From Candidatus Uhrbacteria bacterium (lineage in GTDB: Bacteria; Patescibacteriota; Patescibacteriia; UBA9934), in contig DOZH01000005.1 of NCBI GenBank assembly GCA_003518105.1, positions 40,513 through 104,512 on the forward strand: a stretch of DNA of 64,000 nt. The letters run 5' to 3'. The notes beneath the pieces are model-generated. The model made no database searches and had not been told where the DNA came from. It saw nothing but the letters and a program-made list of their open reading frames with translations. Positions 28,116-62,569 of this stretch are shown here, piece after piece (within the stretch, counting starts at the first letter, position 1; every line of letters starts with the position of its first letter). Made by a program: the position numbers and the translations under genes.

Positions 28116-28150
28116 AGGACGACGCGAGACGTCGTCCTTTGCATTTCCAT
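28116..28150. repeat. AGGACGAC...GTCGTCCT hairpin element, single-hairpin copy
   Basis: AGGACGACgcgagaCGTCGTCCT + TTGCATTTCC, directly after the recombinase gene. Confidence 0.6.
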
Positions 28151-30620: not shown

Positions 30621-30878
30621 ATGCCTCGCCATACAGATCAGAGCACTAAGAACGAGATATTGTCAGCTATTAAAGACGGCCTAAGTGTGGCCGACGCTGC
30701 CATTAAATATACTAAACCTACTCAAACCATTTATGCTTGGCTACGAGGCCAAGTAGATAATATTGGCACCAGTGCTCTTGAAGTCGCTAAGTTACGGCGA
30801 GAAAACACTGAACTTAAAGAAATAATCGGCTGGCTGACGTTAGAAAAACGTCGCGGGGAAAAAAATCACAGAGGCTAG
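30621..30878 (+). CDS. IS3-family transposase OrfA (HTH)
   Basis: 85 aa with an HTH region and leucine-zipper-like tail (LEVAKLRRENTELKEIIGWLTLEK). Ends just after an A7 run (30859-30865). Confidence 0.8.
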   Translation: MPRHTDQSTKNEILSAIKDGLSVADAAIKYTKPTQTIYAWLRGQVDNIGTSALEVAKLRRENTELKEIIGWLTLEKRRGEKNHRG

Positions 30879-30885
30879 GCGTCGT

Positions 30886-31704
30886 ATGTCTGCCAGTAAA
30901 AACAAGGCCGAGCTAGCTAAAAAGCTCGGTGTTAGCCGTTCTTCACTCTACTACCGCCCTAAACGTCCCAAAGATGACGAAGCTCTCAGAGACCGCATCC
31001 TAGCCGTCCAGACAGAGCATCCAGCCTACGGCCACAAGAGGATTGCCATGGCTTTAAAGCTCAACAAGAAGCGTATCCGACGAGTCATGAAGAAGTTCAA
31101 TCTTCGTCCTCGTATCCTGCGGGGTCGGCCAACCAAGCGAGATGACAGAGGCAATTTGCCAACAAAAGTACCCAATCTCGCTAAAACTATCTGCCCAATC
31201 CGAGCTAACGTGCTCTACGCGGGCGACTTCACTTACATTCCCTGGGATAATGGCTTCGTTTATGTAGCCACTGTGCTTGATGTTTTTACGCGAGAGATTG
31301 TGGGCTGGCACATTGGCCTCCACCACACCACCTCCCTCATTACGGAGGCCTTCCTAGATGCTGTACGGAGAACTGGAGTGGCACCCCAGATCTTCCACTC
31401 GGACCAGGGTAGCGAATATGTGAGTGGCAGCTACGAGCTACTCCTGGCAGCCCACGGCACTAAGGCCTCACAGAGCAAGAAATCATCCCCTTGGGAAAAC
31501 TGCTACCAAGAGTCGTTCTACAGCGGCTTCAAGCTCGAGTTTGGCAATCCAACTCGTTTCCATGACTTAGGCGAGCTTGCCGAAGCAGTCCACCGCCAGA
31601 TACACTATTACAACACAAGGAGAATCCACACCGCACTCAAGATGCCACCAGTTACTTACAGGGTTCACCAAGAGAACAAAATAGCAGTCCTCATGACCGC
31701 CTAA
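30886..31704 (+). CDS. IS3-family transposase OrfB (DDE/rve integrase core)
   Basis: YAGDFTYIPW...LDVFTREIVGW...HSDQGSEY...ENCYQESFYSGFKLE...YNTRRIH. The frame is open from 30844 and is +1 relative to OrfA. Confidence 0.85.
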   Translation: MSASKNKAELAKKLGVSRSSLYYRPKRPKDDEALRDRILAVQTEHPAYGHKRIAMALKLNKKRIRRVMKKFNLRPRILRGRPTKRDDRGNLPTKVPNLAKTICPIRANVLYAGDFTYIPWDNGFVYVATVLDVFTREIVGWHIGLHHTTSLITEAFLDAVRRTGVAPQIFHSDQGSEYVSGSYELLLAAHGTKASQSKKSSPWENCYQESFYSGFKLEFGNPTRFHDLGELAEAVHRQIHYYNTRRIHTALKMPPVTYRVHQENKIAVLMTA

Positions 31705-32886
31705 TACCCAACTAATTTATTGTTTTGAAAGGTTATTAGTGTGTTTAAAGAACGGGGTACCTGCCATCCAATATTCCATGTCCGCCCTCAGCGTCCGCCA
31801 TCATCAATACCAAATCGAGACTCTTCACCTCGTTTAGCAACTTCGCAATACTTTTCTCACTTGAAATATCACAAGCTCGTTCGTGCCAACCAGCCTTGTC
31901 GACATTTTTAGCAGTCCGGCCATACAACCAAATCTCATAGCCCAACTTATGTAAGGCGACGGCGACGTAGCGGCCAATCGACTTGGTCTTAGTGCCGGCA
32001 ATCAAAGCTGTCTTGCGGGCTGGCTTTTCGGCAAAGAAAAAGCCCCAACCCATCTTGTCGTTCTCAACCGCGCTGACAATTCCCTCGTAACGGTTCTTCA
32101 ATTCCGTGTAAGTGCCATCAATCTTGTTCTCATAAGCCTTCATCTTCTTGGCTAGCTTGCCGTAGGTCCAAATCATATCTTGGTCGCGCTGTTCGGCCTT
32201 AACTATCTTCAAGCCGACCGCCTGTAAAATCTGCTGGTACACCTTAAACGAGAAGCCCTCGTTCCAGTTAACCATCTTATACACCAAGTCATGTTCATTC
32301 GACGTCAGCTCACTCTGCGCCGCCTGCGCTAAAAAGTCAGCCAAGGCGAACACGCCACCTGGCGCTAACAAGCGGTACACATTTTCATATAATGCCTGTT
32401 TGTCGGCCACGAGCATAATCGCGTCCTGGCTAATGACGTGCGTGAACATCTCGTTCTTCGGAAATACTTGGCTCAGTTCGCTAGCACTAGCGCGTACAAA
32501 CTGCACTTTAACTTTTGGCAGCTTCTTAGCCTTGCGCTCAGCATTAAGTTCACGCACATAAATCTTCGCGTCCTTAATCTGCTCGTCGCTCAGGTCGACG
32601 CCGACGCCACTACAGCCGAACTTTGCACACAGCTCAATAAGCGTCTTGCCCGTCCCACAACCAACGTCGAGCACAGTCGAGCTCTTACTAATCGGCGCAA
32701 TCGTTTCAATATTTTCTAACAAGTGTTCAGTCGCCTGTTTGTAGGCCGTGGGGAGCGAATCAGTTTCCTTCTTAAACAAACCAACGTGCAGCGTATGCGC
32801 CGCCTCGTCCCACGTTTCATCGTAATATTGCTTGAGGAAGTTGAACTTAGTGCGTGTGGTCTTTTCTTGTTCGTTAATCATATTGG

Positions 32887-34502: not shown

Positions 34503-35279
34503 ATGATTACCAACACCGAGGTGAAACAAAATCTTTACACTTCCCTCAAGGAACTCGGTCTCACCGAGAGCGAAGCCAACCTCTACCTCACCTCCTTAAC
34601 CCTCGGCTCCGTCACCATCGTCTCTTTAGCCGAGCATCTCAGCATGCCCAGGCCCAACGTCTACAAAGTCATTGCCGGGCTGGAAAAGCACGGTTTAACT
34701 AAGTTTTCCGAACGTAAAAAGCAATCTCGCACTTTTGTAGTGGAGCCGCCAACCGTCGTCCTGGAACTATTACGCCGTAAACGCGAAGCCATGGCCAGCT
34801 TGGACCAAACCCTCGTCGGTTCCATGCCAGACCTGCTCGCGCTCTACCATCAAGGCGAAACCCCCACCAAAATCAAAGTTTACGAGGGGGAGGACCAGTG
34901 GAATAAAATTTTCTTTAAAGTTCTGGACGAAGCTAAAGATAAAATCGACTTCTTTGGTTCCGCCGACGCTTTCATCGGCCTCATCTCCTGGGAAACCGAA
35001 CTCGAATGGATCCGCCTCCGCACCAGCAAAAACATTCACATGAATTCCCTCCTCACCCCCGGCGCCGACGCTGCCACGCTCGTTCAAAACGACAAACTCC
35101 AAATGCGCACCACGCGCATCTTCCAAGGCACCCTCCCCTTCGTCACCGGCTTCATGCTCTACGCCAACAAGGTAATCATCTGGCAGCCCAAAGCCCCCCT
35201 CGCCGTCCTCGTGGAAGATGAATACATCGTGGCCATGCTCCGCAGCATCTTCGCCGCACTGTGGACACAAAGTGCATAA
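34503..35279 (+). CDS. TrmB-family HTH transcriptional regulator (paralog 4)
   Basis: LKELGLTESEANLYLTSLTLGSVTIVSLAEHLSMPRPNVYKVIAGLEKHGL. Confidence 0.75.
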   Translation: MITNTEVKQNLYTSLKELGLTESEANLYLTSLTLGSVTIVSLAEHLSMPRPNVYKVIAGLEKHGLTKFSERKKQSRTFVVEPPTVVLELLRRKREAMASLDQTLVGSMPDLLALYHQGETPTKIKVYEGEDQWNKIFFKVLDEAKDKIDFFGSADAFIGLISWETELEWIRLRTSKNIHMNSLLTPGADAATLVQNDKLQMRTTRIFQGTLPFVTGFMLYANKVIIWQPKAPLAVLVEDEYIVAMLRSIFAALWTQSA

Positions 35280-35285
35280 ACTCTC

Positions 35286-35360
35286 AGGACGACTTCGGGA
35301 GTCGTCCTGGGCCTGCAAACATTGATAAGGACGACGTTCGACGTCGTCCTTTGCACTTTT
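35286..35360. repeat. Double-hairpin REP-like element, copy 3 (core inverted)
   Basis: AGGACGACttcgggaGTCGTCCT + GGGCCTGCAAACATTGATA + AGGACGACgttcgaCGTCGTCCT + TTGCACTTTT. The spacer is the reverse complement of that in copies 1 and 4. Confidence 0.7.
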
Positions 35361-38423: not shown

Positions 38424-39239
38424 TTGACAACATGGTCATTTTTGGCTAAGATGACTTATATGACCAATCCCAAAGAACTCTTAAGCTACTTCTCCGTCAC
38501 GCCCGACGAAGCCGATATTTACTTAGCTTTGCTTAAACTCGGCACCGCCGCCGTGTCAGAAATTGCCAGTAAAATTAAAAAAAACCGCACCGCCACGCAC
38601 TTTCACCTCAAAAAACTCCTAGCTAAAGAGTTAGTTATCGAATCCAATCACGGCCGCACTCTACTCTACACCGCCATTCCACCAGCCGATCTTGCCGCTC
38701 GTTTCGACCGCTTAACTACAGACTTTAAGAGCCTCGTCCCCCAGCTCGAAGCCCTCCAAACCATCGAAGTCGACGCCCCCCGCGTCCAAGTTAGCGAATC
38801 GCGGGCCGGCTACTTCAAAGTTTATGATGAAATCTCTTCTCTCCCTGAAGGTTCAACTTTCTACGTCATCGAAGGAGCGACAGCATTAAATAGCGAGCTG
38901 ACTCTCTTAAGCAACACCGAAACTACTAACTTCTTCTCCAAAATCATCGCCCGCAAAATAGCCACTAAACTCATCCTCACTGCTGAAGCCACCCAAATCC
39001 CCAACACCCTCATCTCGCCCACCAACCTCGTCTTACTCCACCAGCGCGAAATGAGTGTCCGCACCTATCCAGAATCAGCCCTACCCTTCCAGGGCCTCAC
39101 TATTATGTACGGCAGCACCCTCGCCTACCTCTTCCCGCAAACCAACTTGGTCGTCACCATCAAACACGCCGGCATCGCCGACTCTTTTAAGGCTACTTTC
39201 GACACTCTCTTCACCCTCGGCCAGGAATATAAGTTCTAA
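38424..39239 (+). CDS. TrmB-family HTH transcriptional regulator (paralog 5)
   Basis: VTPDEADIYLALLKLGTAAVSEIASKIKKNRTATHFHLKKLLAKELV. Likely start at 38451 or 38460. Confidence 0.7.
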   Translation: MTTWSFLAKMTYMTNPKELLSYFSVTPDEADIYLALLKLGTAAVSEIASKIKKNRTATHFHLKKLLAKELVIESNHGRTLLYTAIPPADLAARFDRLTTDFKSLVPQLEALQTIEVDAPRVQVSESRAGYFKVYDEISSLPEGSTFYVIEGATALNSELTLLSNTETTNFFSKIIARKIATKLILTAEATQIPNTLISPTNLVLLHQREMSVRTYPESALPFQGLTIMYGSTLAYLFPQTNLVVTIKHAGIADSFKATFDTLFTLGQEYKF

Positions 39240-40570: not shown

Positions 40571-41308
40571 ATGAATACAATCACCTCTCTCACTCGTTTG
40601 GGCCTCTCCACCAACGAGGCTAAAATCTACGTTTGCCTCCTAAAAATCCTGGAAGGTACCGTCTTCGAAATCGCTAAACACTCCGGTATTCCTCGCACGA
40701 CCACTTATACCACCCTCGAATCTCTCAAAGTTCAGGGCCTAGTTACTGCTTTTCGCAAAAATAACGTGCAGTATTTTACACCCGAGAATCCCAAGCAAAT
40801 CCTCACTATACTTCAACACAAACAAGAAATCATCAATGAAATTCTCCCGTCTTTACAGGCCTTATCCCTCGGCACAGACGTTCAGCCATCCGTCAAAATG
40901 TTCACTGGTACACAGGGCATGAAGCTGGCTTTTGAGGACATCCTGGATACTCTTGAGCAAACAGACCAGCGCATTCTTTATGCTGCCGCTTTTCCTGATG
41001 TTATGGATGCTTTGCCTAGGTATTATCACTCTTGGGTTAAGCGTCGTGAAGAGCTTGGCGTAACCACAAAAATGATTCTGCCGGAGTCATCGCGCGAACG
41101 CCGGGCTTTCTACGAAGGGCATAATCGCCAAGTAAAGTTCATGCCCGAGCCGTATCTCTTTGAATGCGCCATGGACATTTACGGCCATAAAATCGTCTTC
41201 TTTGCTCTCCGCGAAGGTACCACCTACTCCATCATTCTCGAATCTCCCACTATCGCCGCCGCCTTTCTCAAATTCTTCCTCTTTGCCTTTGACCACCTCC
41301 CAGAATAG
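40571..41308 (+). CDS. TrmB-family HTH transcriptional regulator (paralog 6)
   Basis: LTRLGLSTNEAKIYVCLLKILEGTVFEIAKHSGIPRTTTYTTLESLKVQGLV. Confidence 0.75.
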   Translation: MNTITSLTRLGLSTNEAKIYVCLLKILEGTVFEIAKHSGIPRTTTYTTLESLKVQGLVTAFRKNNVQYFTPENPKQILTILQHKQEIINEILPSLQALSLGTDVQPSVKMFTGTQGMKLAFEDILDTLEQTDQRILYAAAFPDVMDALPRYYHSWVKRREELGVTTKMILPESSRERRAFYEGHNRQVKFMPEPYLFECAMDIYGHKIVFFALREGTTYSIILESPTIAAAFLKFFLFAFDHLPE

Positions 41309-43328: not shown

Positions 43329-45983
43329 ATGACATCATCTTCTCCCGCCAAAACTTTCCTTATTCTCGACGGCAATGCCCTGCTCCATCGCGCTTGGCAC
43401 GCCATTCCACCACTCACCACCAAAGACGGCCGCGTAGTCAACGCTGTTTACGGCTTCATCATGGTTATTGAAAAAATGCTCAGTCAACTTAAGCCCGACT
43501 ACATGGCCGTCGCCTGGGACTTGCCTGGCAAAACCTTCCGTCATGACGAATACGTTGAATACAAGTCACAGCGCGAAAAAAAGGCCCCAGAACTCTACGC
43601 TCAAATCCCCATGATTCAAGAGGTTCTCAAAGCCTATCACCTCCCATCACTTTCGGTCCCCGGCTTTGAAGGCGACGACATTTTGGGCACCATCGCTACG
43701 CTCAACAAACCACTCGGTATCAAGACCCTTATCGTCACCGGCGACCTTGATGCTCTCCAGCTAGTCGACGACACCACGCACGTCGTCTTCTTCGTCAAAG
43801 GCCTCTCCCAAACCACGCTTTACGACACTGCTGCGGTGGAGGCTCGCTATCACCTCCGACCTAACCAACTTATCGACTACAAAACACTCATCGGCGACCA
43901 TTCCGACAATCTCCCTGGTGTAGCTGGCATTGGTGAAAAGTCCGCCCTCGAACTCATCCAGCAATTCGGCACGGTCGACGGTATCTTCGCCAATCTCGAG
44001 ACCGGCATGGTTCCTTCCAAGTACGCTAAGAAGCTCACCGGCAAGCAGGACGTGGCCAAACAAATGAAGCGCCTCGTCACCATCGTCCGCAACGTCCCAC
44101 TCGACAATTTCGACGTCACTCAGGCCGTCGTTCAACCTCCACACCTCGATGATCTCATTCCCCTTCTCCAAGATCTCGAGTTCCACACCATCCTCAAAAA
44201 GTACCTCCCAGCCACAGCCGAACCCATAAGCCCTCCCCCAGCCATGGGGGAGTTGGAGGGGGCCGTTAAGGTGCCAGCAATAGTTCGTGCGCCAAAAACT
44301 TCGCTCGCCAAACTCGGCGCACTTTCCGATCTTAAAACCGAAAAACTCGCCATTCTCCTCACCAACAAAATCCAACAAGATCTCTTCAGCACCGGCGGCC
44401 TCGCAAGCATTGCCCTCACCGACGGCGAAACCACCTTCATTGCCGAATCGCCGACCCCAGAAGTCATGGCTGACATCGTCAAACTATTATCGACCGCCAA
44501 TCTCATCATCGCCCACGACCTCAAGGCTATCTGGCACACTTTCGCCAAGGCCAGCGTCGACGTCACCTCAGCACTCAATCGTCCTTGTTTTGACACCATG
44601 GTTGCTGCCTACCTCCTCTCTTCCGGCGAACGAGCCATGGCCTTCGCCGACATTGTCCGCGAAACTCTGCACTCCGAGCTGACTGACGACGTTGTCTCGA
44701 CCCTCAGTATTCTTCTCACCTTGTCGATCGCTCTCCAAGCCAAGCTCGCCCACGTTGGCATGACTAAACTCTCCACCGAGATAGAAATGCCGCTCATCGG
44801 CGTCCTCTTCCAAATGGAGCACACCGGTATCGCCGTGGATAGCTCCATTCTGCAAGAACTCTCCAAAAAATTCGCCATTACTCTCGCCAACTTAACCACC
44901 AAGATCTACGCCGCGGCCGGGAAAGAATTCAACATCCAGTCCCCTTCGCAGTTAGCCGACATTCTCTACGTCGACCTCGCTATTCCCACCAAAGGCATCA
45001 AAAAAACCAAGAGCGGCTTCAGTACTGCCGCCCCCGAACTCGAAAAAATAACCGCTCTTCACCCTATCGTCGCCCTCATCGGCGAGTACCGCGAAATCGC
45101 CAAGCTCAAAAACACCTACGCCGATTCCCTTCCTCTCCTCGTTGGTGCCGACGGTCGTATTCACGCCGAGTTCAACCAGTGTATCGCCGCCACCGGTCGT
45201 CTCTCATCATCAAACCCGAATCTGCAGAATATTCCTGTTCGTTCCGAGCTCGGCCGTGAAATCCGCAAAGCCTTCGTTGCCCCTGCCGGTCGTATCCTCG
45301 TCAGCGCCGACTATTCGCAAATCGAATTACGCTTGGCTGCTGTTCTCGCTAAGGACACGGGTTTCATCACCGCCTTCCGGGACAACGCCGACATTCACAA
45401 ACGCACCGCTGCCGAAATGTGGGGCATCCCCGAGGCCGAGGTGACCAAAGAACAGCGTTACGCCGCTAAAGCTATCAACTTCGGCATTCTCTATGGCATC
45501 GGTGCCCGCGCCTTAGCACGTTCATCGAAGGTGAGCTTCGAAGAAGCGAAAGGGTTTATAGACCTCTACTTCCAAGCCCACCCCGGCATTCGTGGCTTCA
45601 TAGATGCCATGAAGGCCAAGGCCCACGCCGACGAATACGTGGAAACTCTCTACGGCCGCCGTCGTTATCTGCCAGAAATCAACGGCAATATGCCCCAGCT
45701 GGTCGCCATGGCCGAACGAATGGCTATCAACATGCCAGCTCAGGGCACGCAAGCCGATATCATCAAAATCGCCATGCGTCGTGTACAAGATTGGCTCACC
45801 ACCTCTGGCCTCACAGCGACGCTTCTCCTCCAGGTTCACGACGAACTTGTCCTGGAAGCGGACCTAGTCGACGTCCCCGTAGTCTCGCAAAAAGTTCAAG
45901 AAATCATGACCTCAGTCATCACCCTCGACGTCCCTCTCTTGGTCGACGTGGAAACCGGCACTAACTGGGGAGATCTAAAATAA
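43329..45983 (+). CDS. polA: DNA polymerase I
   Basis: 5'-nuclease N-terminus (LILDGNALLHRAWHA), polymerase motifs DYSQIELRLAA and LLQVHDELVLE. 884 aa. Confidence 0.95.
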   Translation: MTSSSPAKTFLILDGNALLHRAWHAIPPLTTKDGRVVNAVYGFIMVIEKMLSQLKPDYMAVAWDLPGKTFRHDEYVEYKSQREKKAPELYAQIPMIQEVLKAYHLPSLSVPGFEGDDILGTIATLNKPLGIKTLIVTGDLDALQLVDDTTHVVFFVKGLSQTTLYDTAAVEARYHLRPNQLIDYKTLIGDHSDNLPGVAGIGEKSALELIQQFGTVDGIFANLETGMVPSKYAKKLTGKQDVAKQMKRLVTIVRNVPLDNFDVTQAVVQPPHLDDLIPLLQDLEFHTILKKYLPATAEPISPPPAMGELEGAVKVPAIVRAPKTSLAKLGALSDLKTEKLAILLTNKIQQDLFSTGGLASIALTDGETTFIAESPTPEVMADIVKLLSTANLIIAHDLKAIWHTFAKASVDVTSALNRPCFDTMVAAYLLSSGERAMAFADIVRETLHSELTDDVVSTLSILLTLSIALQAKLAHVGMTKLSTEIEMPLIGVLFQMEHTGIAVDSSILQELSKKFAITLANLTTKIYAAAGKEFNIQSPSQLADILYVDLAIPTKGIKKTKSGFSTAAPELEKITALHPIVALIGEYREIAKLKNTYADSLPLLVGADGRIHAEFNQCIAATGRLSSSNPNLQNIPVRSELGREIRKAFVAPAGRILVSADYSQIELRLAAVLAKDTGFITAFRDNADIHKRTAAEMWGIPEAEVTKEQRYAAKAINFGILYGIGARALARSSKVSFEEAKGFIDLYFQAHPGIRGFIDAMKAKAHADEYVETLYGRRRYLPEINGNMPQLVAMAERMAINMPAQGTQADIIKIAMRRVQDWLTTSGLTATLLLQVHDELVLEADLVDVPVVSQKVQEIMTSVITLDVPLLVDVETGTNWGDLK
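44231..44270 (+). repeat. In-frame mini-palindromic repeat (PPAMGE element) inside polA
   Basis: CCCTCCCCCAGCCATGGGGGAGTTGGAGGGGGCCGTTAAG. Near-identical copies at 46728 and 60185. Hairpin CTCCCCCA/TGGGGGAG. Confidence 0.75.
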
Positions 45984-45988
45984 CTCAA

Positions 45989-46063
45989 AGGACGACTTCG
46001 GGAGTCGTCCTAATCAATGTTTGCAGGCCAAGGACGACTTTCGATGTCGTCCTTGTGTTTTGT
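45989..46063. repeat. Double-hairpin REP-like element, copy 4
   Basis: AGGACGACttcgggaGTCGTCCT + AATCAATGTTTGCAGGCCA + AGGACGACtttcgatGTCGTCCT + TGTGTTTTG, directly after polA. Confidence 0.7.
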
Positions 46064-46607: not shown

Positions 46608-47600
46608 ATGATCATCTTTATCTACGGCGACGACGGCCCTCGTCTCAAAACAAAACTTTTGCAATTAACCACCCAATTTACCACTAAATTTGATACTACC
46701 GGCCTCAATCTAGCCTCTTTTTACAACTCTCCCCCAGCTATGGGGGAGTTGGTGGGGGCTTTAACTTACCCCGACGTGCTCCAGGCTGTCATGAGCTCAC
46801 CATTTCTCAGTGAGAAGCGCATGGTCATCGTCCACAATCTCATGGACGGCCTCAAAAAGGACGACGCTATTATGTGGGCCGATGGCCTCGCTAAAACCCC
46901 CTCGTCAACCATTCTTGTCCTCGTTGATAACCTCGACCCAACCAAAGTCGAGAAACACGAGCTCTTCAAGCGCCTTAAAGATGGTGCCGAGGTTCACACC
47001 TACGCCGAAGTTAAACGTGAAGGAGCAGCTCTTTATTCCTGGCTTATCGACGAGGCCAAAAAACAAGGTGCTCAACTCAGCTTATCAGTGGCTACAGATC
47101 TCGCCACCCGTGTTGGTGACGACGCCTGGCAGCTGCAAAACGAGTTGGCCAAAGTGGTCGCCTACGCCAACGGTGCGGCTATCACCACCACCATGCTCGA
47201 CCTACTCGTCCAAAGCTCCAGCGAGTCCAACATTTTCGCCTTCGTGGATGCTATTAGCCAACGAGACGCTAAAAACGCCCTCCGCCTGCTGGCTACTGAA
47301 CGGGCCGCTGGTTCCGTCGACTTCTACCTCTTAACCATGCTCGCTCGCCAAATTCGCATTCTCCTCCAAATCTGCGTCCTCCTCGCGGACGAGCCAGGTG
47401 CTGCCGCCGACGTCGCTAAACGCCTATCTTTACACCCCTTTGTGGCCGGCAAGGCTACCTCCCAAGCCAAGCGCTTCACCCTCCTCCAGCTCCTCAATCT
47501 CCATCAGCTCCTCGTTAAACTCGACCACGACGCCAAAACAGGCGGCCTCGACGCTGGCCTGGCTGTGGACCGACTTGTCGCCGAAATGCTAGCTATTTAG
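46608..47600 (+). CDS. holA: DNA polymerase III subunit delta
   Basis: MIIFIYGDDGPRLKTKLLQL... with the typical HolA layout. The ORF-track start at 46143 runs through the upstream gene; the ATG at 46608 is preferred. Confidence 0.75.
   Translation: MIIFIYGDDGPRLKTKLLQLTTQFTTKFDTTGLNLASFYNSPPAMGELVGALTYPDVLQAVMSSPFLSEKRMVIVHNLMDGLKKDDAIMWADGLAKTPSSTILVLVDNLDPTKVEKHELFKRLKDGAEVHTYAEVKREGAALYSWLIDEAKKQGAQLSLSVATDLATRVGDDAWQLQNELAKVVAYANGAAITTTMLDLLVQSSSESNIFAFVDAISQRDAKNALRLLATERAAGSVDFYLLTMLARQIRILLQICVLLADEPGAAADVAKRLSLHPFVAGKATSQAKRFTLLQLLNLHQLLVKLDHDAKTGGLDAGLAVDRLVAEMLAI
46728..46768 (+). repeat. In-frame mini-palindromic repeat (PPAMGE element) inside holA
   Basis: CTCTCCCCCAGCTATGGGGGAGTTGGTGGGGGCTTTAACTT, encoding SPPAMGELVGALT. 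Confidence 0.75.
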
Positions 47601-51477: not shown

Positions 51478-51551
51478 GACCTCGTAGCTCAACTGGATAG
51501 AGCAGGTCCGTCCTAAGGACAAGGTTACAGGTTCAACTCCTGTCGAGGTCA
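51478..51551 (+). tRNA. tRNA-Arg (CCT)
   Basis: Acceptor GACCTCG/CGAGGTC, D arm GCTC-AACTGGATA-GAGC, anticodon loop GTCCTAA, T arm ACAGG-TTCAACT-CCTGT. CCA not encoded. Confidence 0.85.
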
Positions 51552-51566
51552 AGAGAAATTAAAACA

Positions 51567-51590
51567 TTTGTCTAGGCCACTGTAGACAAA
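51567..51590. promoter_or_regulatory. Inverted-repeat operator candidate TTTGTCTA-N8-TAGACAAA (site 1)
   Basis: Perfect 8-bp arms with an 8-bp spacer. An identical architecture is at 52574-52597. Confidence 0.45.
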
Positions 51591-51635
51591 TAAGTTACAG
51601 CACGTGTTACAACTATAGTTACAAGATAAAATTCA

Positions 51636-51708
51636 GGGCCTGTGGCTCAGTTGGTAGAGCGCTGCATTCGCATTGCAGAGGTCAGCGGTTCGAATCCGCT
51701 CAGGTCCA
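51636..51708 (+). tRNA. tRNA-Ala (CGC)
   Basis: Acceptor GGGCCTG/CAGGTCC with G3:U70, anticodon arm CTGCA-TTCGCAT-TGCAG, T arm AGCGG-TTCGAAT-CCGCT. Confidence 0.9.
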
Positions 51709-51807
51709 CCCGAGCTCAGCTCGGTTGTCGGTATGCGCCCAAAGCTCAGCTTTGGTAATTCGACAACTAGCTTGCTGCTGAGCGAAGGGTGAGTCAGCTC
51801 AGCTGAC
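51709..51807. repeat. AGCTSAGCT hairpin repeat cluster (non-coding copy of the element found inside two surface-protein genes)
   Basis: CGAGC-tca-GCTCG, CCAAAGC-tca-GCTTTGG, GTCAGC-tca-GCTGAC. The reverse complement of 51709-51765 aligns with 60085-60135 and 55408-55460. Confidence 0.65.
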
Positions 51808-51855
51808 CACCACTCGATCATTCAACCATGATCAATATTGGTTGACTCAGTCAGA

Positions 51856-51883
51856 TATAGTAGATTATATATAATCTACTATA
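51856..51883. repeat. Perfect 28-bp palindrome
   Basis: TATAGTAGATTATATATAATCTACTATA. Confidence 0.7.
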
Positions 51884-51906
51884 ATAACGAGGTGAATTCG
51901 GCAAAC

Positions 51907-51941
51907 AAAATCAGTCACTTCTGTGGCTGATTTTGTTTTTT
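51907..51941 (+). terminator. Intrinsic terminator about 200 nt downstream of tRNA-Ala
   Basis: AAAATCAGTCAC-ttct-GTGGCTGATTTT followed by GTTTTTT. Confidence 0.6.
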
Positions 51942-52013
51942 GCGCTTTTATTGGGCTTTATTGAAAACGGCACGTGTAACAGGCTTATTTGAGAAAAAAG
52001 GAAGCTCATTTTC

Positions 52014-54541: not shown

Positions 54542-57082
54542 GTGAGGCAGTTTTTTTTAACCTTGCGTGCAACTTTTTTTATCATACTCGGAGGAGTGTG
54601 CATTTTGCATTCAGCCAATATTACCCAAGCCGCCACCGTGACAGATCTCTACGATCAGCCTTCGTCGCTCGTCATTTCCGCCGCCTCAAATCATAAATTT
54701 GTCTTCGTTCCAGCTAGCAATATCAGTGGCGGCAGCACCTTAACTTTCACCTTTGCCTCACAATTTACTACCACCAGTATCACCGAAGACGACGTCGACA
54801 TCGCCGACGATGGCGTAGACCTCACCACGGCCGTCAACTGCGCTGGTGCCGACCAAGCCTCAATCGCCATGGCCGGTAACATTTTAACCATCACCATTTG
54901 TGCTGGCAACGGTGGCGACATTGCACTTGGAAGTTCGGTTACTGTCGAGGTTGGCACCAACGCCTCGGCCTCAGGTAGCGGCACAAATCAAATCACTAAC
55001 CCTAGTACTGCCGCCACCTATTACATCACCTTAGGTGGTACCTTCGGCGACTCCGGTTCGATTCCATTGCCCTTTGTTACCAGCAATAGCGGCGGCGTTT
55101 CTGGTACCTTCACGGCTCCCAGTAGTGATAACGGTAATAATGGTTGCGGCGCTTGCGGTGGCGATCCAACCCCAACTCCCACACCCGACCCAACTCCAGT
55201 TCCAGATATTCCACCCGTCGAACCCACCCCAGAACCAACCCCAACACCTGAACCTACACCCACTCCGACCCCAGAACCAATCCCTACACCAACTCCCACC
55301 CCAGCGCCCGACTCAACCCCAACTCCAACCTCAGGCTCAACGCCTTCCTCGGGTTCGACGCCAACAACGACTCCCACCGAACCAACAACCCCACCTACTG
55401 AACCAATCACCGAGCCAAGTCAAAGTCCAGATTTGACCGCAAATCCACCAATCGAGCTCAGCTCGACCACCGCCACTCTTATCGTCGACGGCGGCCTTAC
55501 GCTCACCCCCGACGGAACTACTTTCTCTACTCTCGCTGGCACCCCCTCCACTATCAGCGTCACCCTAGATGAATCTACTCCAGTCACGGAAGCTCGTGTC
55601 ATCATCGACCATGTTGCCTACGTTTTAGTAGCCAACAATAGCTCGTACACAGCCAACATCGTGCTACCATCCGCCGACACCGCCCTCACCATTCAAGCCG
55701 ACCATACTGACGGTACTACGTCGACCTCATCCTACACCCTCAACGTCCAGGGCGGCGGCATGGTTTACGAAGTCGTCAATAAATCATGGGTGCCAGTTAG
55801 CGGCGCTATGGTTACGGTCTATCAAACTAGCGGCGGCTCGCATACAGCCTGGAATGCCTCAGCCTACGACTCCATCAATCCAGTCATCGTTGGCAGTAGT
55901 GGCGCCTATTCTTTCTACGTTCCGAACGGCACTTATCAAATCACCGCCAGTCACCTCGGTTTTCAAGAGGGAACTAGTCCCACAATCACAGTTACTAATC
56001 ACATCCTTACTACCTCGATCGAACTTAAACGAACAACGATTGCGCCAATTTCTCCTGCACCAACCGGTGCTATAAATATCGCAGTCGCCGCGGTCACCAC
56101 GCAGCTCGACGTCATTCGTGATATTCCGGCAGTCCAAGTTGCCACCTCAATTGCTACCCCCGCCACGGCCGTACTTGCCGCTACCTCAGCCGTTGCCTTG
56201 GCCTCCTCCTTCAGCCTTCTTCCATACCTCCAATACCTCTTCACCGCACCCTTCCTCTTCTTTGCTCGCCGTAAGCGTAAAGCTTTCGGTACCGTCTATA
56301 ATGCCGCCACCAAACTTCCAGTGGACCTCGCTATCATTCGTCTCTTTTCAAGTCCCGAGCATAAACTAATCCGCAGTGTCGTCACCAACCAAAAAGGTGA
56401 GTATTTGTTATCCGTCGCCGCCGGCACTTACACTATTGAAGTTCTAAAGCAAAATTTCTCCTTCCCAAGTGCCATCCTACAAGGCAAAAAAGACGATGGT
56501 GCATTCCTCGACGTCTACACTGGCCAAATCATCACCGTTTCTGATCAAGAAGCTACCATTGCCGCTAACATTCCGCTCGATCCTGCTGGCGCTGCTTCAC
56601 TCGCCACGCCACGTCATGCCGCCCTCATTCGCCTATTCCGCGTTGCCCAACAGGTCGTAGCTATTGCCGGCATAGTTCTGTCTATTGTTGTGCTCATCAT
56701 CGCGCCAACAATATTCACCACCATCATGTGCGTGGTGCAAATAATCGTCTATCTTTTAGTCCGTCGTTTGGCTCGTGTCCGCAAACCAAAAGGTTGGGGC
56801 ATTGTTTACGACGAGGTGACTAAGCAGCCTGTGAGTAACACCGTCGTCAGATTGTTCGAGCCCGTGTATAATAAACTCATCGAAACGGTTTTAACGGATC
56901 GCTTCGGTCGCTACGCTTTTCTTGTTGGGCCAAGTCAGTATTACGTCAGCTATAGTAAACCTGGTTACACCGAGAAATTGGTGCGACCAATTGACTTTAG
57001 CACCCGCACCGAGCCAACCGCTCTAGCGCTTGATGTACCACTAGCCGAAGCCGCAGAAGTTGTAGTCAAAACGGAGGTATGA
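54542..57082 (+). CDS. Large surface protein: signal peptide, Pro/Thr linker, CarboxypepD_reg-like repeats, several TM segments
   Basis: [30 protein letters not shown] linker. Two repeats of type GxVYxxxTKxPVxxxxxRLF. Hydrophobic segments near residues 560-590 and 700-740. Confidence 0.65.
55408..55460 (+). repeat. AGCTSAGCT double-hairpin element, in-frame copy inside the 846-aa gene
   Basis: AGTCAAAGTCCAGATTTGACCGCAAATCCACCAATCGAGCTCAGCTCGACC, encoding [17 protein letters not shown]. Confidence 0.6.
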
Positions 57083-60000
57083 TGACTCGTGCCGCATTTC
57101 ATCTGCGACGATTCTTAGCTAGCTCCATGCTGGCCATCTTGTTGTTTTCAGGCCTCTTCGGTTTTACACTTTCTCAAGTCAACGCCGCCTCAGCCCCAAA
57201 CATTCTCAACTATCAAGGCCGCCTATTGAACGCGAACGGCGTACCGATCAGTGCTGCCTCGGCTAGCATGACCTTCGCGCTCTACACCGTGCTCGCCACT
57301 GGCAGCCCCGGTGACGCCGAATGTGTCTGGACTAATAGTAGCAGCAGTGGTTTTTCAGCGACGACTCGTACAGTAACCTTAACCGATGGCCTCTTTAGCG
57401 AAAACTTGGGTGACACCGCCGCTGGCACTCCCTATGCGGCTATCACTGATTCAATTTTTTCTAATAATGCCAATCTCTACCTAGAAATTACCATCAACGG
57501 TGAAATGCTCACTCCTCGCAAACAAATCGTCTCCGCTCCGTACGCCATGAACTCGGACACCCTCGACGGCTTCGACAGCACGCAAGCCGGCGGTACCACG
57601 GCCGCCACTCTCGTCCTCAACAGTTCTGGCAACCTCCAGCTCACCGGTAATCCAAGCGGTTCCACTATCAGCAGCGGTTCGCTTTATATTAATCCAGCTA
57701 CTGGCGACGTGGCTGCCAACGACGTTCTCTTTGGCATTGCTGTCACCGGTACCACAAAATTTTCTCTCGACGCCGAGGGCGACACTATCGCTACGGGCGA
57801 CCTCGCGGTTAATGGGGGGGACTTCACAACTAGTGCTACCACCTTCAATTTGCTCACCACCACCGCTACCACGCTCAGCTTCGCCTCAGCCGCCACTACC
57901 CTCAATATCAACAACGCAGCTGGCGTCTCCACCAAAACCATCAACATTGGTGGCACTTCTGCCGACAGTCCCAATGCCATCAACATCGCCACCGAAGGCA
58001 CCCAAGCCGACACCATCATCATCGGCAACAATAACGCGTCGACTCTGATGACCTTAACTGGTGGTAATGACTGGTCAATCGACAACGCTGGTATTATTAC
58101 GACAACTGGCAATATTACAACAGCTGGCGACGTCGCTGTTAACGGCGGTGGAATCACCTCGACAGACACTCTTGATATTTCCTCATCAAGCAGCAATATT
58201 TCATTGTCAGCAAGCGGCAGCGGATCGGGTATGGTCTACGTTACAGCGGGCGACAATTTTGCTGTCGGCGGTATCACAGACGCTGTTCCTTTCTCAGTAA
58301 CCGAAGCCACCAATTCGGTGCGCATCGGTGACGGAGCAAGTGATAGCAATGATCCAGCGATCAGATTCTTTGCTTCCGATGCTTCAGACGACGGCACCCT
58401 CAAATATGCAGACACTGATGCTTTCGAATTCTTTGGTGGCGACCTCGTCCATACTGCTATCGCTACTACAACCTTCGGTCAGCATTTTGTTAATGACTCA
58501 ATCACGAGCGGGGTCGGCATGTCTATCAGCCGTGCTGATGGCGTGACAGACTTTACAGGCGCCTTGCTCAGTATTGCTCAGAATGATACCAGTACTACCA
58601 GCACGGGCAATGCTTTAGTAGTTGTCCAAGACGCTAATAATACTAGTTGCGTCGCCGGTCCTTGCGCTAAAGGCCTTTTCATTGCTCAAGCCCACACTAC
58701 AGCCCACATCGCTGACGACCCAGGGGGGAGCGCTCTTGCTATCGACATAGGTGAAGCAGGCAGTACCGACGACGCCATTGTTCTTCGAGCTGGTCCTGCT
58801 ACAACTTTCCGTGTGACTACCGAAGGTAATGCCTACGCCGACGGTGCCTTTACTGGTGGTGGCGCTGACTTGGCTGAGTATTTTCCCACCTCCAACACTA
58901 GTCTCGGCAGTGGTCAAATAGTTTGCCAAGATACAGTGAATAAAAATCAAGTTACGCAGTGTATTAACAGTCAGTACGCTCCGATCGGTGTAGTTTCAGA
59001 CAATCCTGCCTTTATCGGTAATCTCATAGGTGATGCTTCTGAAGATCTGCGCCACAACCCTAATTATAGTCTCGTCGGTTTGCTCGGTCAGATCGACACC
59101 TTGGTCGACGACAGCAGGGGAGTCATCAACATCGGTGACCCCATCACGGCCTCGTCAGCTACCAGCGGCTACGGCGCCAAAGCTATCGGCGCTGGTCGCA
59201 TTGTCGGTTACGCCCTCGAACCTCTCTCATCCACCACCGGCACTATCCGCGTGCTCGTCCAACCACAATGGTTCGGCGGTACAGTAGCGGCTCCAGCCCC
59301 TGCCACCTCGGCCGAAGTTGTCGCTGCTAACCCAGTTGTTATCGCCGATAATTCCGTTTCTGGCTTAACCAACACCTCTGTTCTCGACGTCGACGGTTCG
59401 CTCAACATGAACGGCGGTCGTATTCTATCCGTCTCATCATTGCAGGGTCTCGGTGGTAACTGGCACCTGGCCGAGAACGGTGACTTCACTACCCACGGTC
59501 AATTCATTGGCTTGGTCAATGGCTACAGCGGCGCCCCAGTCGAGACTTATGCCACGATGAGTCGCCAGCATCTCATTCAACTCTCCGGCACTGCTACCCT
59601 CCAAAACGGCATCGCTCACGTTCTCTTCGTAGACGTCGACCCTCAGTTCGCCGACGTTATCAGTAACACCTCACCTTACCGCGTCATCGCCACGCCTTCT
59701 GGTCTCACTGGCCAAATCTACATCAGCGAACGCACTCTCACTGGCTTCACCATCCGCGACATCAATAACTCAAACGGCGTCGAGGTTGACTGGTTAGTTA
59801 TGGCCTATAATAAAGACTTCTCCCCAGACTCGGTCATCACTGTGCCTGTTGTTGAGCCAGTTATCGGTAATGCTCCACCCGCCTCTGCTCCATCAGTCGA
59901 GCCATCTGCTGACACCACTGCTCCCCTCACCGAACCAGCTATCATCGATCCTCAAGTTGATGCTTTAGTAGTCGCCGAAGACCCGGTTATTACCACCGAA

Positions 60001-60207
60001 CCGGTCATTACGCCCGACCCAGTTGCCGACGCTCCCGTTATTGCCGAGCCAGTCTCGACTCCTGACCCAGCCGTTACCGAGTCAAGCCAAAGCTCAGCTT
60101 TGGCCGCAAATCCAACAAGCGAGCTGAGCTCGCCCGAGCCTGTAGCCGAAGCTGCACCAGTAGTCGAGCCATCACCCGCAAACCCTCCTCCAGCTATGGG
60201 GGAGTAG
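57079..60207 (+). CDS. Giant secreted protein (1042 aa), fibre/adhesin-like
   Basis: Signal peptide (LASSMLAILLFSGLFGFTLSQVNA), long Thr/Ser/Gly/Ala-rich repeats, ADLAEYFP...GDPITAS C-terminal domain, Pro-rich tail. ATGA overlap with the upstream gene. Confidence 0.65.
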   Translation: MMTRAAFHLRRFLASSMLAILLFSGLFGFTLSQVNAASAPNILNYQGRLLNANGVPISAASASMTFALYTVLATGSPGDAECVWTNSSSSGFSATTRTVTLTDGLFSENLGDTAAGTPYAAITDSIFSNNANLYLEITINGEMLTPRKQIVSAPYAMNSDTLDGFDSTQAGGTTAATLVLNSSGNLQLTGNPSGSTISSGSLYINPATGDVAANDVLFGIAVTGTTKFSLDAEGDTIATGDLAVNGGDFTTSATTFNLLTTTATTLSFASAATTLNINNAAGVSTKTINIGGTSADSPNAINIATEGTQADTIIIGNNNASTLMTLTGGNDWSIDNAGIITTTGNITTAGDVAVNGGGITSTDTLDISSSSSNISLSASGSGSGMVYVTAGDNFAVGGITDAVPFSVTEATNSVRIGDGASDSNDPAIRFFASDASDDGTLKYADTDAFEFFGGDLVHTAIATTTFGQHFVNDSITSGVGMSISRADGVTDFTGALLSIAQNDTSTTSTGNALVVVQDANNTSCVAGPCAKGLFIAQAHTTAHIADDPGGSALAIDIGEAGSTDDAIVLRAGPATTFRVTTEGNAYADGAFTGGGADLAEYFPTSNTSLGSGQIVCQDTVNKNQVTQCINSQYAPIGVVSDNPAFIGNLIGDASEDLRHNPNYSLVGLLGQIDTLVDDSRGVINIGDPITASSATSGYGAKAIGAGRIVGYALEPLSSTTGTIRVLVQPQWFGGTVAAPAPATSAEVVAANPVVIADNSVSGLTNTSVLDVDGSLNMNGGRILSVSSLQGLGGNWHLAENGDFTTHGQFIGLVNGYSGAPVETYATMSRQHLIQLSGTATLQNGIAHVLFVDVDPQFADVISNTSPYRVIATPSGLTGQIYISERTLTGFTIRDINNSNGVEVDWLVMAYNKDFSPDSVITVPVVEPVIGNAPPASAPSVEPSADTTAPLTEPAIIDPQVDALVVAEDPVITTEPVITPDPVADAPVIAEPVSTPDPAVTESSQSSALAANPTSELSSPEPVAEAAPVVEPSPANPPPAMGE
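60085..60135 (+). repeat. AGCTSAGCT double-hairpin element, in-frame copy inside the 1042-aa gene
   Basis: GCCAAAGCTCAGCTTTGGCCGCAAATCCAACAAGCGAGCTGAGCTCGCC, encoding SQSSALAANPTSELSSP. Confidence 0.6.
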
Positions 60208-60225
60208 GAGGGGGCTTTAACTTAT
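60185..60225 (+). repeat. PPAMGE mini-palindromic repeat at the 3' end of the 1042-aa gene
   Basis: CTCCTCCAGCTATGGGGGAGTAGGAGGGGGCTTTAACTTAT. It contains the gene's TAG stop and ends at the next gene's ATG. Confidence 0.75.
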
Positions 60226-62569
60226 GAAATTAAATTTTTTACGAGTGAGCCACCTCTGGACGTCAGTCGCGTTCCTAATTCTGGCCGTCGCCATCCCGTT
60301 ACTCTATCTCCCATTTACCATCGAACCCCACGAACTCATCAAGCAAACCCTCCTCGTTCTTATCATCGTCCTCTCGAGCCTCACCTTGGTCGCCACCATC
60401 ATCCAAACTCGCACTCTCACTCTCCGTCGTGACTGGAGTTATTTATTGTTCGCCCTCCTCATCGTTTCTCTGCTCATCGCCCCCGGTCTCCGCGAGTCAC
60501 CTTTCTTGTCGTTAATGGGCCAAGCTGGGCAGGAATACACCAGCGTTCTCAGCTTTGTCATGTACGGCCTGCTCTTCTTCCTCGGTGCCGAATCACTCAA
60601 AACACCCGGTCAAATTAGCCGTCTTCTCTCAGCCCTCCTCATTGGCAGCGCCCTAATTTCCATACTCGCCATCCCAGCCTTCTTCGGTGCCACCTTCCCT
60701 CCACCCCTCATCGGCGGCGCCAACACTTTCGCCGTTTATCTCATTACGCTGATGACCCTCGGCCTTGGTCTGTGGTTGTTGGATCGCGCCGACGCCCCTC
60801 ACCCTATACTGCCGAGCGGTTTCTTCGGCCTCATCGTCCGCGCCTCTATTCTCATCACGAGTATAATTTCTTTCATCACTCTCCTCGCCCTCGACTACAG
60901 CCCCCTCTGGTTCTTGTCGATGATCGGCCTTGGCGCCCTCTTCCTCATCGCCTTCATTAAGCCAACTGAGTTCAAGTATCACGGTCGCTTTGTCCTACCC
61001 ATGCTTTTCTTCGGCTTAAGCCTCATCTTTATCTTCTTACCGAGCCCTATCAGCAGTCCCTTCGCCCCAGAAATAGCACCCACTCAATCCGCTAGTCTCG
61101 CCATCGCCACTAGCACTCTTAACGAGCATCTCCTCTTCGGCTCCGGCGCCGGCACTTACGGCTTCGATTACGCCGCCCATTCCTCACCATCGCTCAACTC
61201 TACAGCCTATTGGGACACCACTTTTTCCTCAGCTAATTCCTATTTCTTAACACTTCTCCCAACCGTCGGCCTCATTGGCACAGGTCTTTATCTGCTCATC
61301 TGCTTAATGATTTTGGCTGGTGCGATCATCGTACTCTTCCACGCTCGCCACATTGCTAATCGAACCATCATTATCGCGCCAATAACTGCCTGGCTCGTCC
61401 TCTTTAGCGCTCAGTTCTTAGTTTCTTCAAACATCACTCTCTCCGTCACGTTCTGGCTCCTTTCCGCCATTCTCGCCTCACTCTCAGTCAAAAAACTTTA
61501 CACCGTGTCCTTCGACCGGTCACCCCGCACCGGTCTCGCCGCTATTTTTCTTTCCGTCTGCGTCATCCTCGGCCTCTTCACCGCTCTGTTCGTCACCGCC
61601 TCCCGTTACCTTGCCGAGTTATCTTTTCAACGCGCTATCACTCTCAGTCAAACTGGTGGCAATCCTGATGACGTCATTGCGACTCTGGATCGCGCCGCCA
61701 TTCTTAACCGCTGGAACGACGTTTACTATCGCAATCTCGCCCACATTCTTCTGCAAAAAACCGCCATCGCCTTAAAACAACCAGACGTCGACCAAACCTA
61801 CATTCAGCAGCTCATCGGGTCGAGCGTCAATGCCGCCAAGCGTGCTACCGAACTTGCTCCAAGCAACGTCGCCAACTGGGTCATTCTCGGCGACACTTAC
61901 AAAGAAATCGCTCCAGCCATTCCAGAATCTGTTATCTTTGAACTCGCCGCTTACCAAAAAGCCCAAGTTCTCGCCCCCAGTAACCCACGCTATCTAGTCG
62001 ACGTGGCTCAGGCCCACCTCGCAGTTGCGGATGGTGCAGCAATCGTCATGGCCGGCTCTGACAAGGACCTCGCCGCCCAAGCCACTATCAATCGCGCCTC
62101 AGCCCTCGACTCTGCCCTAACTGCCTTACTCTCCGCCCAAAAACTTAAGCCAGATTACGCTCCAGCCGGTTACTACCTGGCTGGTGTCTACGAACGCCAA
62201 GGCAAATTAGCCGACGCCATTGCTGGCCTCGAAGCCATTCGCAATTCTAACCTAAACGACGTCGGAGTCGGCGTCCAGCTCGCCTTACTTTATCTCAAAC
62301 AAGGCAAAAATACTCTCGCTCAAGATGAACTAACTCGCGTGCTCGACATCAGTTCCGACTATGCGGACGCCCACTGGTATTTGGCCACCATTTTTGAGAA
62401 CCAAGGCGACCTTGAGCGCGCCATCATTCAGGTCGAAGCCGTAGCTGCCGCTAACCCAGACAATGAACTAGTAAAAACTCGTCTCTCCCGCCTCCGTCAA
62501 GGCCTGGCCGATAAACTTCTGCCACCGCCACTTGAGACTCCGACTACCGACGCCACGACTTCTCCATAA
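60224..62569 (+). CDS. Polytopic membrane protein (O-antigen ligase/Wzy-like core) with a C-terminal TPR region
   Basis: At least 10 hydrophobic segments. LLFGSGAGTYGFDY loop. C-terminal TPR-like repeats (YYLAGVYERQGKLADAI, HWYLATIFENQGDLERAI). Confidence 0.55.
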   Translation: MKLNFLRVSHLWTSVAFLILAVAIPLLYLPFTIEPHELIKQTLLVLIIVLSSLTLVATIIQTRTLTLRRDWSYLLFALLIVSLLIAPGLRESPFLSLMGQAGQEYTSVLSFVMYGLLFFLGAESLKTPGQISRLLSALLIGSALISILAIPAFFGATFPPPLIGGANTFAVYLITLMTLGLGLWLLDRADAPHPILPSGFFGLIVRASILITSIISFITLLALDYSPLWFLSMIGLGALFLIAFIKPTEFKYHGRFVLPMLFFGLSLIFIFLPSPISSPFAPEIAPTQSASLAIATSTLNEHLLFGSGAGTYGFDYAAHSSPSLNSTAYWDTTFSSANSYFLTLLPTVGLIGTGLYLLICLMILAGAIIVLFHARHIANRTIIIAPITAWLVLFSAQFLVSSNITLSVTFWLLSAILASLSVKKLYTVSFDRSPRTGLAAIFLSVCVILGLFTALFVTASRYLAELSFQRAITLSQTGGNPDDVIATLDRAAILNRWNDVYYRNLAHILLQKTAIALKQPDVDQTYIQQLIGSSVNAAKRATELAPSNVANWVILGDTYKEIAPAIPESVIFELAAYQKAQVLAPSNPRYLVDVAQAHLAVADGAAIVMAGSDKDLAAQATINRASALDSALTALLSAQKLKPDYAPAGYYLAGVYERQGKLADAIAGLEAIRNSNLNDVGVGVQLALLYLKQGKNTLAQDELTRVLDISSDYADAHWYLATIFENQGDLERAIIQVEAVAAANPDNELVKTRLSRLRQGLADKLLPPPLETPTTDATTSP

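Follow-up and report, generated by a model that had tools for sequence, protein, structure and literature searches.

The 3' end of a gene for a 1042-aa secreted or surface protein carries two short sequence elements that probably belong to two families of hairpin-forming dispersed DNA repeats of the Candidatus Uhrbacteria clade, which behave like intragenic repetitive extragenic palindromic sequences (REPs) or Rickettsia palindromic elements (RPEs) and have remodelled this gene end. The gene lies in a stretch of 64,000 nucleotides from a Candidatus Uhrbacteria bacterium (contig DOZH01000005.1, positions 40,513 to 104,512 of the forward strand), which is referred to below as the window and to which all coordinates apply unless a relative is named. 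The elements were designated A (the PPAMGE element) and B. Both are dispersed and present in multiple copies, occur in several reading frames and in both orientations, and are variable among orthologs. As a description of the positions of the elements and of the ancestral parts, this reading is close to certain; its weak part is how the elements spread, which we infer only.

The 1042-aa protein is encoded by the open reading frame (ORF) 57079-60207 on the + strand and combines an N-terminal signal-like segment with a low-complexity C-terminal tail rich in Pro, Glu, Val and Ala that starts at about position 59830. The ORF 60224-62569 (+) begins 16 nt past its stop and specifies a membrane protein of 781 aa that carries TPR repeats in its C-terminal part; its ATG and N-terminus are conserved in element-free orthologs. 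This operon is syntenic in relatives, where it comprises genes for proteins of 304 aa and 306 aa, a CarboxypepD_reg protein of ~820 aa, a surface protein of ~1000 aa and a TPR membrane protein of ~775 aa. The identical 1042-aa protein (P0001) is carried by seven contigs, and the single place shown for it belongs to a different assembly, so that the arrangement is not an assembly artefact; the proteins P0002 to P0006 served as orthologs. Both repeats are contained in the last 150 nt of the gene, B being followed by A. An earlier note on this DNA had reported two different repeats at this position, and both are confirmed here as members of multi-copy families with slightly different limits, since A extends over ~60181-60220 rather than 60185-60225 and B over 60082-60133 rather than 60085-60135.

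Element A (+ strand; repeat family D10, core matches and profile search) is ~40 nt long and has the composition AAC-CCTCCTCC-AGCTAT-GGGGGAG-TA-GGAGGGGGC-TTTAA. It consists of the 5' arm CCCTCCTCC (60183-60191), which deviates from the consensus by one C>T change, the loop AGCTAT (60192-60197), the proximal arm GGGGGAG (60198-60204), the variable dinucleotide TA (60205-60206), the distal block GGAGGGGGC (60207-60215) and the tail TTTAA (60216-60220). The respective family consensus of ~40 nt is CYCTCCCCC-AGCYAT-GGGGGAG-NN-GGAGGGGGC-TTTAA. The TAG stop codon of the 1042-aa gene (60205-60207, +) is located inside the element, as had been claimed, and is composed of the variable dinucleotide and the first G of the distal block. 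Among 39 copies of A, this dinucleotide is CC in 10 cases, TT in 9, AT in 5, GC and CT in 4 each, TC in 3, AC in 2, and AG and TA in 1 each, the TA being unique to the junction copy. The other two copies of the window read TTG at the position of the TAG, and no dinucleotide other than TA yields a stop when the element is read in the PPAMGE frame; the predicted fold places the two variable bases in a bulge. The simplest account of the stop codon is a single T-to-A change or the selection of a copy bearing TA. When the TAG was reverted to TTG in silico, the ORF ran 75 codons further to position 60430, which is about 200 nt into the next gene.

A comparison with orthologous operons lacking the elements, which had been proposed in the earlier note, showed that the start position of the downstream gene is unchanged and that the stop of the upstream gene is changed. 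The gap between stop and ATG amounts to 6 nt in L026 (75% identity; ...CCA TAG tcgcct ATGAAATTTTCG), 3 nt in L028 (...GAG TAG cct ATGAAATTTTCG), 6 nt in L029 (...CCA TAA ttttct ATGAAGTCA), 6 nt in L030 (...TTC TAA tcatct ATGAAATTAACG) and, on the basis of gene calls only, 6 nt on the contig of P0003, that is, 3-6 nt in the orthologs in comparison with 16 nt in the window (...GAG TAG gagggggctttaactt ATGAAATTAAAT). The orthologs without a junction element begin with the same ATGAAATT or with ATGAAG after a CCT or TCT, the corresponding triplet of the window being CTT, and the downstream proteins can be aligned from residue 1 onwards (MKLNFLRVSHLWTS... in the window and MKFSFARLSQLWTS... in L026). 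Because of this alignment from the first residue, the downstream ATG is assigned to the ancestral sequence, as is, probably, the CTT in front of it. The 3' boundary of A was set by the copy in holA, where element-free relatives resume with CTACCCCGAC and the window has ...GGGGGCTTTAA followed by CTTACCCCGAC. As this comparison ends the element at ...GGGGGCTTTAA, the CTTA common to two of the window copies represents flanking sequence, and the downstream ATG sits 3 nt past the conserved end of A. Accordingly, the claim that the tail of A provides the ATG at 60224 was not borne out. According to these alignments, element A supplies the stop and most of the intercistronic spacer (60208-60223, +), which is composed of 13 nt of A and the presumably ancestral CTT. 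The view that the C-terminus and the junction were remodelled by repeats thus applies to the C-terminus, the stop and the spacer but not to the start codon.

Element B (60082-60133, +; repeat families D11 and D13) is a 52-nt double hairpin with the in-frame translation SSQSSALAANPTSELSS. Its first hairpin (GCCAAAGC-TCA-GCTTTGGC, 60086-60104) is joined by the linker CGCAAATCCAACAA (60105-60118) to the second one (GCGAGC-TGA-GCTCGC, 60119-60133), and both hairpins are present in the minimum-energy structure computed by RNAfold. The element is flanked by two copies of the 5-nt direct repeat CCGAG (60077-60081 and 60134-60138, +), a possible target-site duplication or microhomology. The closest ortholog of the 1042-aa protein, P0002 of L026 with 75% identity, carries neither A nor B. 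At the B site the window reads PDPAVT-E[SSQSSALAANPTSELSSP]EPVAEAAPV and L026 reads PDPIVT-S-EPVAESAPV, which corresponds to a net gain of 18 codons (54 nt) in the window. The tail of L026 goes on with ...DSAPAAEAPATP and its stop, ending in ...APAAEAPATP; that of the window runs ...VEPSPA, then enters element A and ends in ...PSPANPPPAMGE before the stop, with the C-terminal peptide ...VVEPSPANPPPAMGE.

The tails of the remaining orthologs differ as well. P0004 of L028 contains a copy of A elsewhere in the tail that is read through in frame (NNPPPVMGEMEGALIT), P0003 (on peptide evidence only) and, in L029, P0006 carry B near the C-terminal end, and P0005 of L030 has neither element. In L029, one copy of B has additionally taken over the C-terminus of the upstream gene and lengthened it, and another one is located inside the TPR membrane protein gene with a net gain of 7 aa. 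Moreover, a different, distantly related surface protein from another Uhrbacteria metagenome-assembled genome (MAG) contains A and then B in its tail (L007, 2707-2931), in the reverse of the order found in the window. Evidently, surface proteins tolerate the landing of such elements in their low-complexity tails.

The consensus of the B family comprises ~52 nt with two hairpins, each centred on AGC-TSA-GCT, that are joined by CGCAAAYCCAACAA. The motif AGCTSAGCT occurs nine times in the window, in comparison with 0.56 expected occurrences, and none of 100 shuffled sequences reached this number. The repeat finder grouped the copies at 29017, 51737, 55418 and 60085 (families D11 and D13). One of them is located inside the NDH-2 gene (29016-29067, +), where it is translated in a different frame (AKAQLWSQAKKPAEL) and replaces a conserved segment, as detected by the repeat finder, Pfam and ortholog alignment. 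Another one belongs to the upstream gene for an 846-aa surface protein (55415-55468, +; D13), has a partly decayed first hairpin and is missing from the orthologs in L026, L028 and L030. The intergenic copy (51711-51755, -) is positioned directly 3' of a tRNA-Ala gene in a strongly structured region of 100 nt. Further copies are known from L029, L007, L034 and the tRNA flank of L026. A metagenome scan for B yielded three matches only, none of them clearly of the family, and B appears to be confined to close relatives of the window organism.

B uses three different reading frames and encodes SQSSALxANPxSELSS in the tails of surface proteins, KAQLWSQxxKPAEL in NDH-2 and in the TPR membrane protein of L029 and, according to peptide evidence only, PKLSFGRK... 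in the PolA linker of P0125. Intergenic copies were found in both orientations (51755-51711 of the window, -; 1037-1083 of L034, +). A comparison of seven copies revealed that 99% of the stem positions pair and that 6 of the 14 base pairs show compensatory changes. Neither the covariation score nor the percentage of paired positions was reached by any of 500 shuffles, the number of pairs changed on both sides was reached by one shuffle of 500, and the signal collapsed in slid controls. Base pairing is kept by these compensatory changes but the peptide is not (SQSSAL to SGSSAS). The constraint on B thus acts at the nucleotide level, which argues against a protein motif.

These data bear directly on the view that conserved peptide modules of surface-protein tails, for instance a motif for sorting or processing, account for the shared sequences and were spread by recombination between paralogs. 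Five copies of B in such tails indeed use one frame with the peptide (E)PSQSSALxANPxSELSS, and the 60-nt match between 55409 and 60076 (D13) extends into the flanking codons. The same DNA is nevertheless used in two other frames in NDH-2, the TPR membrane protein and PolA and lies between genes after the tRNA-Ala, the stem covariation changes the peptide, and A is present in cytoplasmic replication proteins. As several frames are in use, the peptide module is for the most part refuted already, and it is regarded as highly improbable.

The region of 100 nt directly after the tRNA-Ala (51711-51811) is strongly structured (RNAfold z = -4.85) and holds, in addition to the reverse-oriented copy of B, a third hairpin with the sequence AGCTCAGCT. 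It is conserved with compensatory changes in L026 at positions 628-700 and could represent a functional RNA or the source copy of B.

Three copies of element A were grouped in the window by the repeat finder (44229, 46725 and 60181; family D10), the junction copy and two further ones that are 75-91% identical over 44 nt. A core of 31 nt matches 44232-44262 with three mismatches, where 0 matches are expected. All three copies are in frame: 44229-44268 (+) specifies a part of the linker that connects the 5'-nuclease domain of PolA with its polymerase domain (SPPPAMGELEGAV), 46725-46764 (+) is located in the gene for HolA, the delta subunit of DNA polymerase III (true start ATG at 46608), and the third one forms the end of the surface-protein gene. 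A pattern scan with the A core, which covered one genome per species in the genome collection, detected 25 loci from seven Patescibacteria MAG assemblies, several of them with eight or more copies; two of the seven MAGs carry the label Gammaproteobacteria in their records. A subsequent nhmmer profile search identified 39 copies in 326 kb of collected DNA, most of which came from the search pattern that fixes the core positions. Classification with a simple ORF model, which gives approximate counts, assigned ~11 copies to long ORFs in the frame ...PPAMGE.EGA..., ~8 to a second sense frame of long ORFs and ~4 to antisense positions within ORFs; the remaining copies are intergenic or overlap gene ends, including the stops of convergent ORFs. 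In CAYFME01, a subfamily of A with the 5' extension GTGACACGTGGAGTC typically overlaps the stop codon of a convergent ORF. Neither the A nor the B pattern was present in the viral contig collection, and a phage origin of the two elements was rejected on this basis.

The copy of A in PolA is common only to the closest relatives, decays among them and is not found in the ortholog at 85% identity or below. In P0123 the decayed copy reads SPPPAMEGLGEAV, and more distant orthologs possess linkers that are 15-25 aa shorter. The same site in the PolA of L034, a 90%-identical relative, has 27 extra nucleotides in the loop (3890-3960; AGGCGATGGTGCCAATACCGTTGCCCT), so that element A itself is a site of further insertion.

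This pattern is relevant to the possibility that, instead of being selfish insertions, the repeats serve as functional DNA motifs and every single copy is maintained by selection, for example as a binding site for an abundant DNA-binding protein, an uptake or architecture signal or a strand-polar sequence. In favour of this explanation, the core of A hardly changes between copies or between genomes, in contrast to the NN spacer and the loop, copies of A within a locus are mostly co-oriented (seven of the eight loci with two or more copies), and the blocks CTCCCCC, GGGGGAG and the mirror GAGGGGG, as read from the sequence, suggest a defined non-B structure. The invariance of the core is, on the other hand, largely forced by the search pattern, the density of three copies in 64 kb is low, the copies decay in PolA orthologs, and the same sites in close relatives are without elements. 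Such a role is therefore considered unlikely.

A further explanation regards A and B as selected cis-acting RNA structures of the polycistronic mRNA. In one mode, the CCUCC/GGAGG hairpin of A would sequester an AGGAGG motif and be opened by the ribosome ending at the TAG, by which the translation of both genes would be coupled; in the other mode, the hairpins would stabilise or punctuate the transcript. In favour of this explanation, A contains GGAGG motifs with a complementary C-rich arm and an AGGAGG at 60206-60211, which is located mostly inside the spacer and ends 12 nt upstream of the ATG, several of the copies in other genomes closely precede an ATG, all intragenic copies of B are in sense orientation, and the hairpins of B covary. 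The start regions of most window genes (e.g. 27175, 28169 and 52720) are, in contrast, devoid of a Shine-Dalgarno motif, and several genes look leaderless; the orthologs need only a stop-start gap of 3-6 nt and no Shine-Dalgarno motif. Moreover, A occurs in both orientations and deep inside the polA and holA genes, where such a role is impossible, and its fold is not better than that of shuffled sequences (z = -0.54). The arms of A are invariant and in part fixed by the search pattern. No terminator-like site, i.e. a G+C-rich hairpin followed by a T run, was present on the + strand between 59700 and 60421, and an intrinsic terminator at the junction was accordingly rejected. An Rfam gathering scan of the whole window returned only tRNAs above the threshold, and the matches in 60000-60300 and 51550-52000, which were additionally scanned locally by E-value, were at chance level only. 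A selected RNA structure is thus rated as a rather doubtful explanation, slightly more so than the DNA motif; a role of A at the junction in translational coupling or as Shine-Dalgarno donor is possible but weak and was kept as a minor rival. As a side observation, TATAAT-like boxes are found 4-10 nt upstream of the ATG in several window genes, which suggests leaderless mRNAs.

Several copies differ from their element-free counterparts by more than an addition. In HolA, A takes the place of the IGQD(R/H)AD of the relatives with a net gain of 7 aa, and in NDH-2 (28169-29389) B replaces the conserved segment nGRi.VD..l...G before the second GD motif with a net loss of 3 aa. The upstream 846-aa gene gained a net 9 aa by B. 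The altered NDH-2 is retained in relatives of 73-86% identity. On the basis of these alignments, several of the A and B events look like short-patch replacement rather than clean insertion, although the loop regions align poorly and later deletions could mimic patch replacement.

Under the favoured reading of dispersed repeats, a mobile or copied element would have been inserted, or would have replaced a patch of host sequence, through a mechanism that acts in trans. The copies that end up in genes stay open in the frame of the host gene and are translated, and they would persist by landing in tolerant protein segments. In the 1042-aa gene, B sits in the disordered C-terminal tail and adds net 18 codons, and A stands where the last codons, the stop and a spacer of 3-6 nt were located ancestrally. 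The NN of A is TA in this copy, which differs by one substitution from the TT found in both other copies of the window and gives rise to an in-frame TAG; the new spacer of 16 nt in front of the ancestral ATG is made up of the 13 nt of A that follow and of the ancestral CTT. The TAG would presumably be needed to block the read-through of 75 codons into the next gene.

A number of observations weigh against this reading. Pfam scans of ~38 window ORFs did not link a transposase or a REP-associated tyrosine transposase (RAYT) to A or B and detected only an IS3-type transposase and a Xer-like recombinase. Likewise, an all-against-all comparison of ORFs did not reveal a protein family that recurs beside the copies of A. 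Four of the seven copies of B are flanked by direct repeats of 5-8 nt (CCGAG, CACCG, TCGACG and CCAGCCTC), but the same test was positive at 10% of random window positions and in 25% of cases in low-complexity tails. The evidence for target-site duplications is thus only suggestive, with p ~0.003 against the window background and ~0.07 against low-complexity tails, as estimated from these null rates. The replacement of host sequence seen in NDH-2 (-3 aa), HolA (+7 aa) and the upstream gene (+9 aa) is not predicted by cut-and-paste transposition, and the sense orientation of B at seven of seven intragenic sites is not predicted by purely selfish insertion. Furthermore, the near-invariance of the A arms across distant genomes could reflect selection on each copy, although most copies were found by a pattern fixing those positions. 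The sense orientation of B and the co-orientation of A within loci could result from constraints on the reading frame, from a role at the RNA level or from a bias towards one replication strand, as is typical of single-stranded DNA transposition.

A more specific proposal holds that A and B are products of an undescribed strand-specific, hairpin-guided patch replacement in ultra-small bacteria of the candidate phyla radiation (CPR) and not ordinary cut-and-paste mini-transposons. A structured cassette would thereby be written over 20-60 nt of the host DNA, and the blocks CTCCCCC, GGGGGAG and the mirror GAGGGGG of A could form an intramolecular purine-motif triplex recognised by this process. 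The proposal fits the observations that several copies replace sequence, including a conserved NDH-2 segment, that the intragenic copies of B are all in sense orientation and that the flanking microhomologies vary in length, but it is given little credence here.

The window contains additional mobile and repetitive sequences. An IS3-family insertion sequence is located at 30563-31766, with terminal inverted repeats of 27 nt and an rve transposase gene at 30886-31704, and a XerC/D-like tyrosine recombinase is encoded nearby at 27175-28095. A third family of hairpin repeats has the structure AGGACGAC-N6/7-GTCGTCCT, its copies being often paired via ATCAATGTTTGCAGGCC. The copies at 19019-19098, 28113-28146, 35279-35358 and 45982-46061 are intergenic and located at gene 3' ends, e.g. 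right after the polA stop; as they contain CGTC, they may represent CGTC-type REPs or terminators. A repeat of 96-121 nt occurs in four copies at a spacing of ~555 nt between 7891 and 9588 (also 11819-11860), each with an internal hairpin GCGTGAGGGTCGAGTG...CACTCCCCTCGCGC, and the ORFs between these copies (7646-8422 and 8511-9062) gave no match to Pfam. Additionally, six paralogous TrmB-like helix-turn-helix proteins are encoded within the 64 kb (2586-3425, 6549-7319, 10288-11049, 34503-35279, 38424-39239 and 40571-41308).

The junction analysed here shows, with orthologs as controls, that repeats of 40-52 nt can rewrite a C-terminus, donate a stop codon and re-space an operon junction. The genome concerned is streamlined to about 1 Mb, a setting considered poor in selfish DNA. 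The copies in PolA, HolA and NDH-2, which have long been inherited, contribute to the change of protein sequences in Patescibacteria, and such elements can mislead gene prediction as well as the alignment and annotation of proteins from CPR bacteria. In the literature searched, no report of such repeats was found for Patescibacteria, CPR, Uhrbacteria or Parcubacteria.

Among the known systems, the RPEs (Ogata et al. 2000, 2002) are described in the summary given by PMC10969869 as palindromic repeats that are present in frame in many unrelated genes. Like these, A and B form dispersed palindromic families in a reduced genome and are translated in frame in unrelated housekeeping genes, the ORFs for PolA, HolA, NDH-2, surface proteins and the TPR membrane protein remaining open. 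By description, they are set apart from RPEs, which are about 100-150 bp long and specific to Rickettsia, by their length of 40 and 52 nt and their occurrence in Patescibacteria, and a sequence relationship is not expected. Unlike RPEs, several copies replace host sequence, including the conserved NDH-2 segment, instead of only adding a loop, and one copy of A supplies a stop codon.

Intragenic REPs tagged with GTAG or CGTC (Di Nocera et al. 2013, PMC3733652) are palindromes of 20-40 bp, often organised as dimers encoding 20-30 amino acids, and are located mostly downstream of ORFs but also inside genes. A and B resemble them as palindromic units of 20-40 bp that are single or arranged in dimers, the hosts in this case including PolA and HolA. 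The GTAG/CGTC end tag is missing: among the seven aligned copies of B, GTAG is present in one only (the NDH-2 copy) and CAAG in most, and the 39 copies of A show no consistent tag. The two hairpins of B are oriented head to tail, i.e. as direct units with a conserved linker, which differs from the inverted units of REPINs, and no RAYT, that is, a tyrosine transposase of the IS200/IS605 type, was present among the window ORFs scanned against Pfam.

[quoted passage not shown] In common with these small non-autonomous repeats, A and B make in-frame fusions, new termini and new gene junctions, but a typical MITE is much longer. Weak terminal inverted repeats, with the ends GTAAA...TTTAC, are found in some copies of A and not in others, and direct repeats at four of seven copies of B have to be seen against a background of 10-25%. 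A parent insertion sequence with matching ends is not contained in the window, the ends of its sole insertion sequence (IS3-type, 30563-31766) being unrelated. Membership of A and B in the RPE or REP family is accordingly not supported. The remodelled gene end represents a known kind of event in a new lineage that is documented with ortholog controls and is moderately interesting rather than categorically new.

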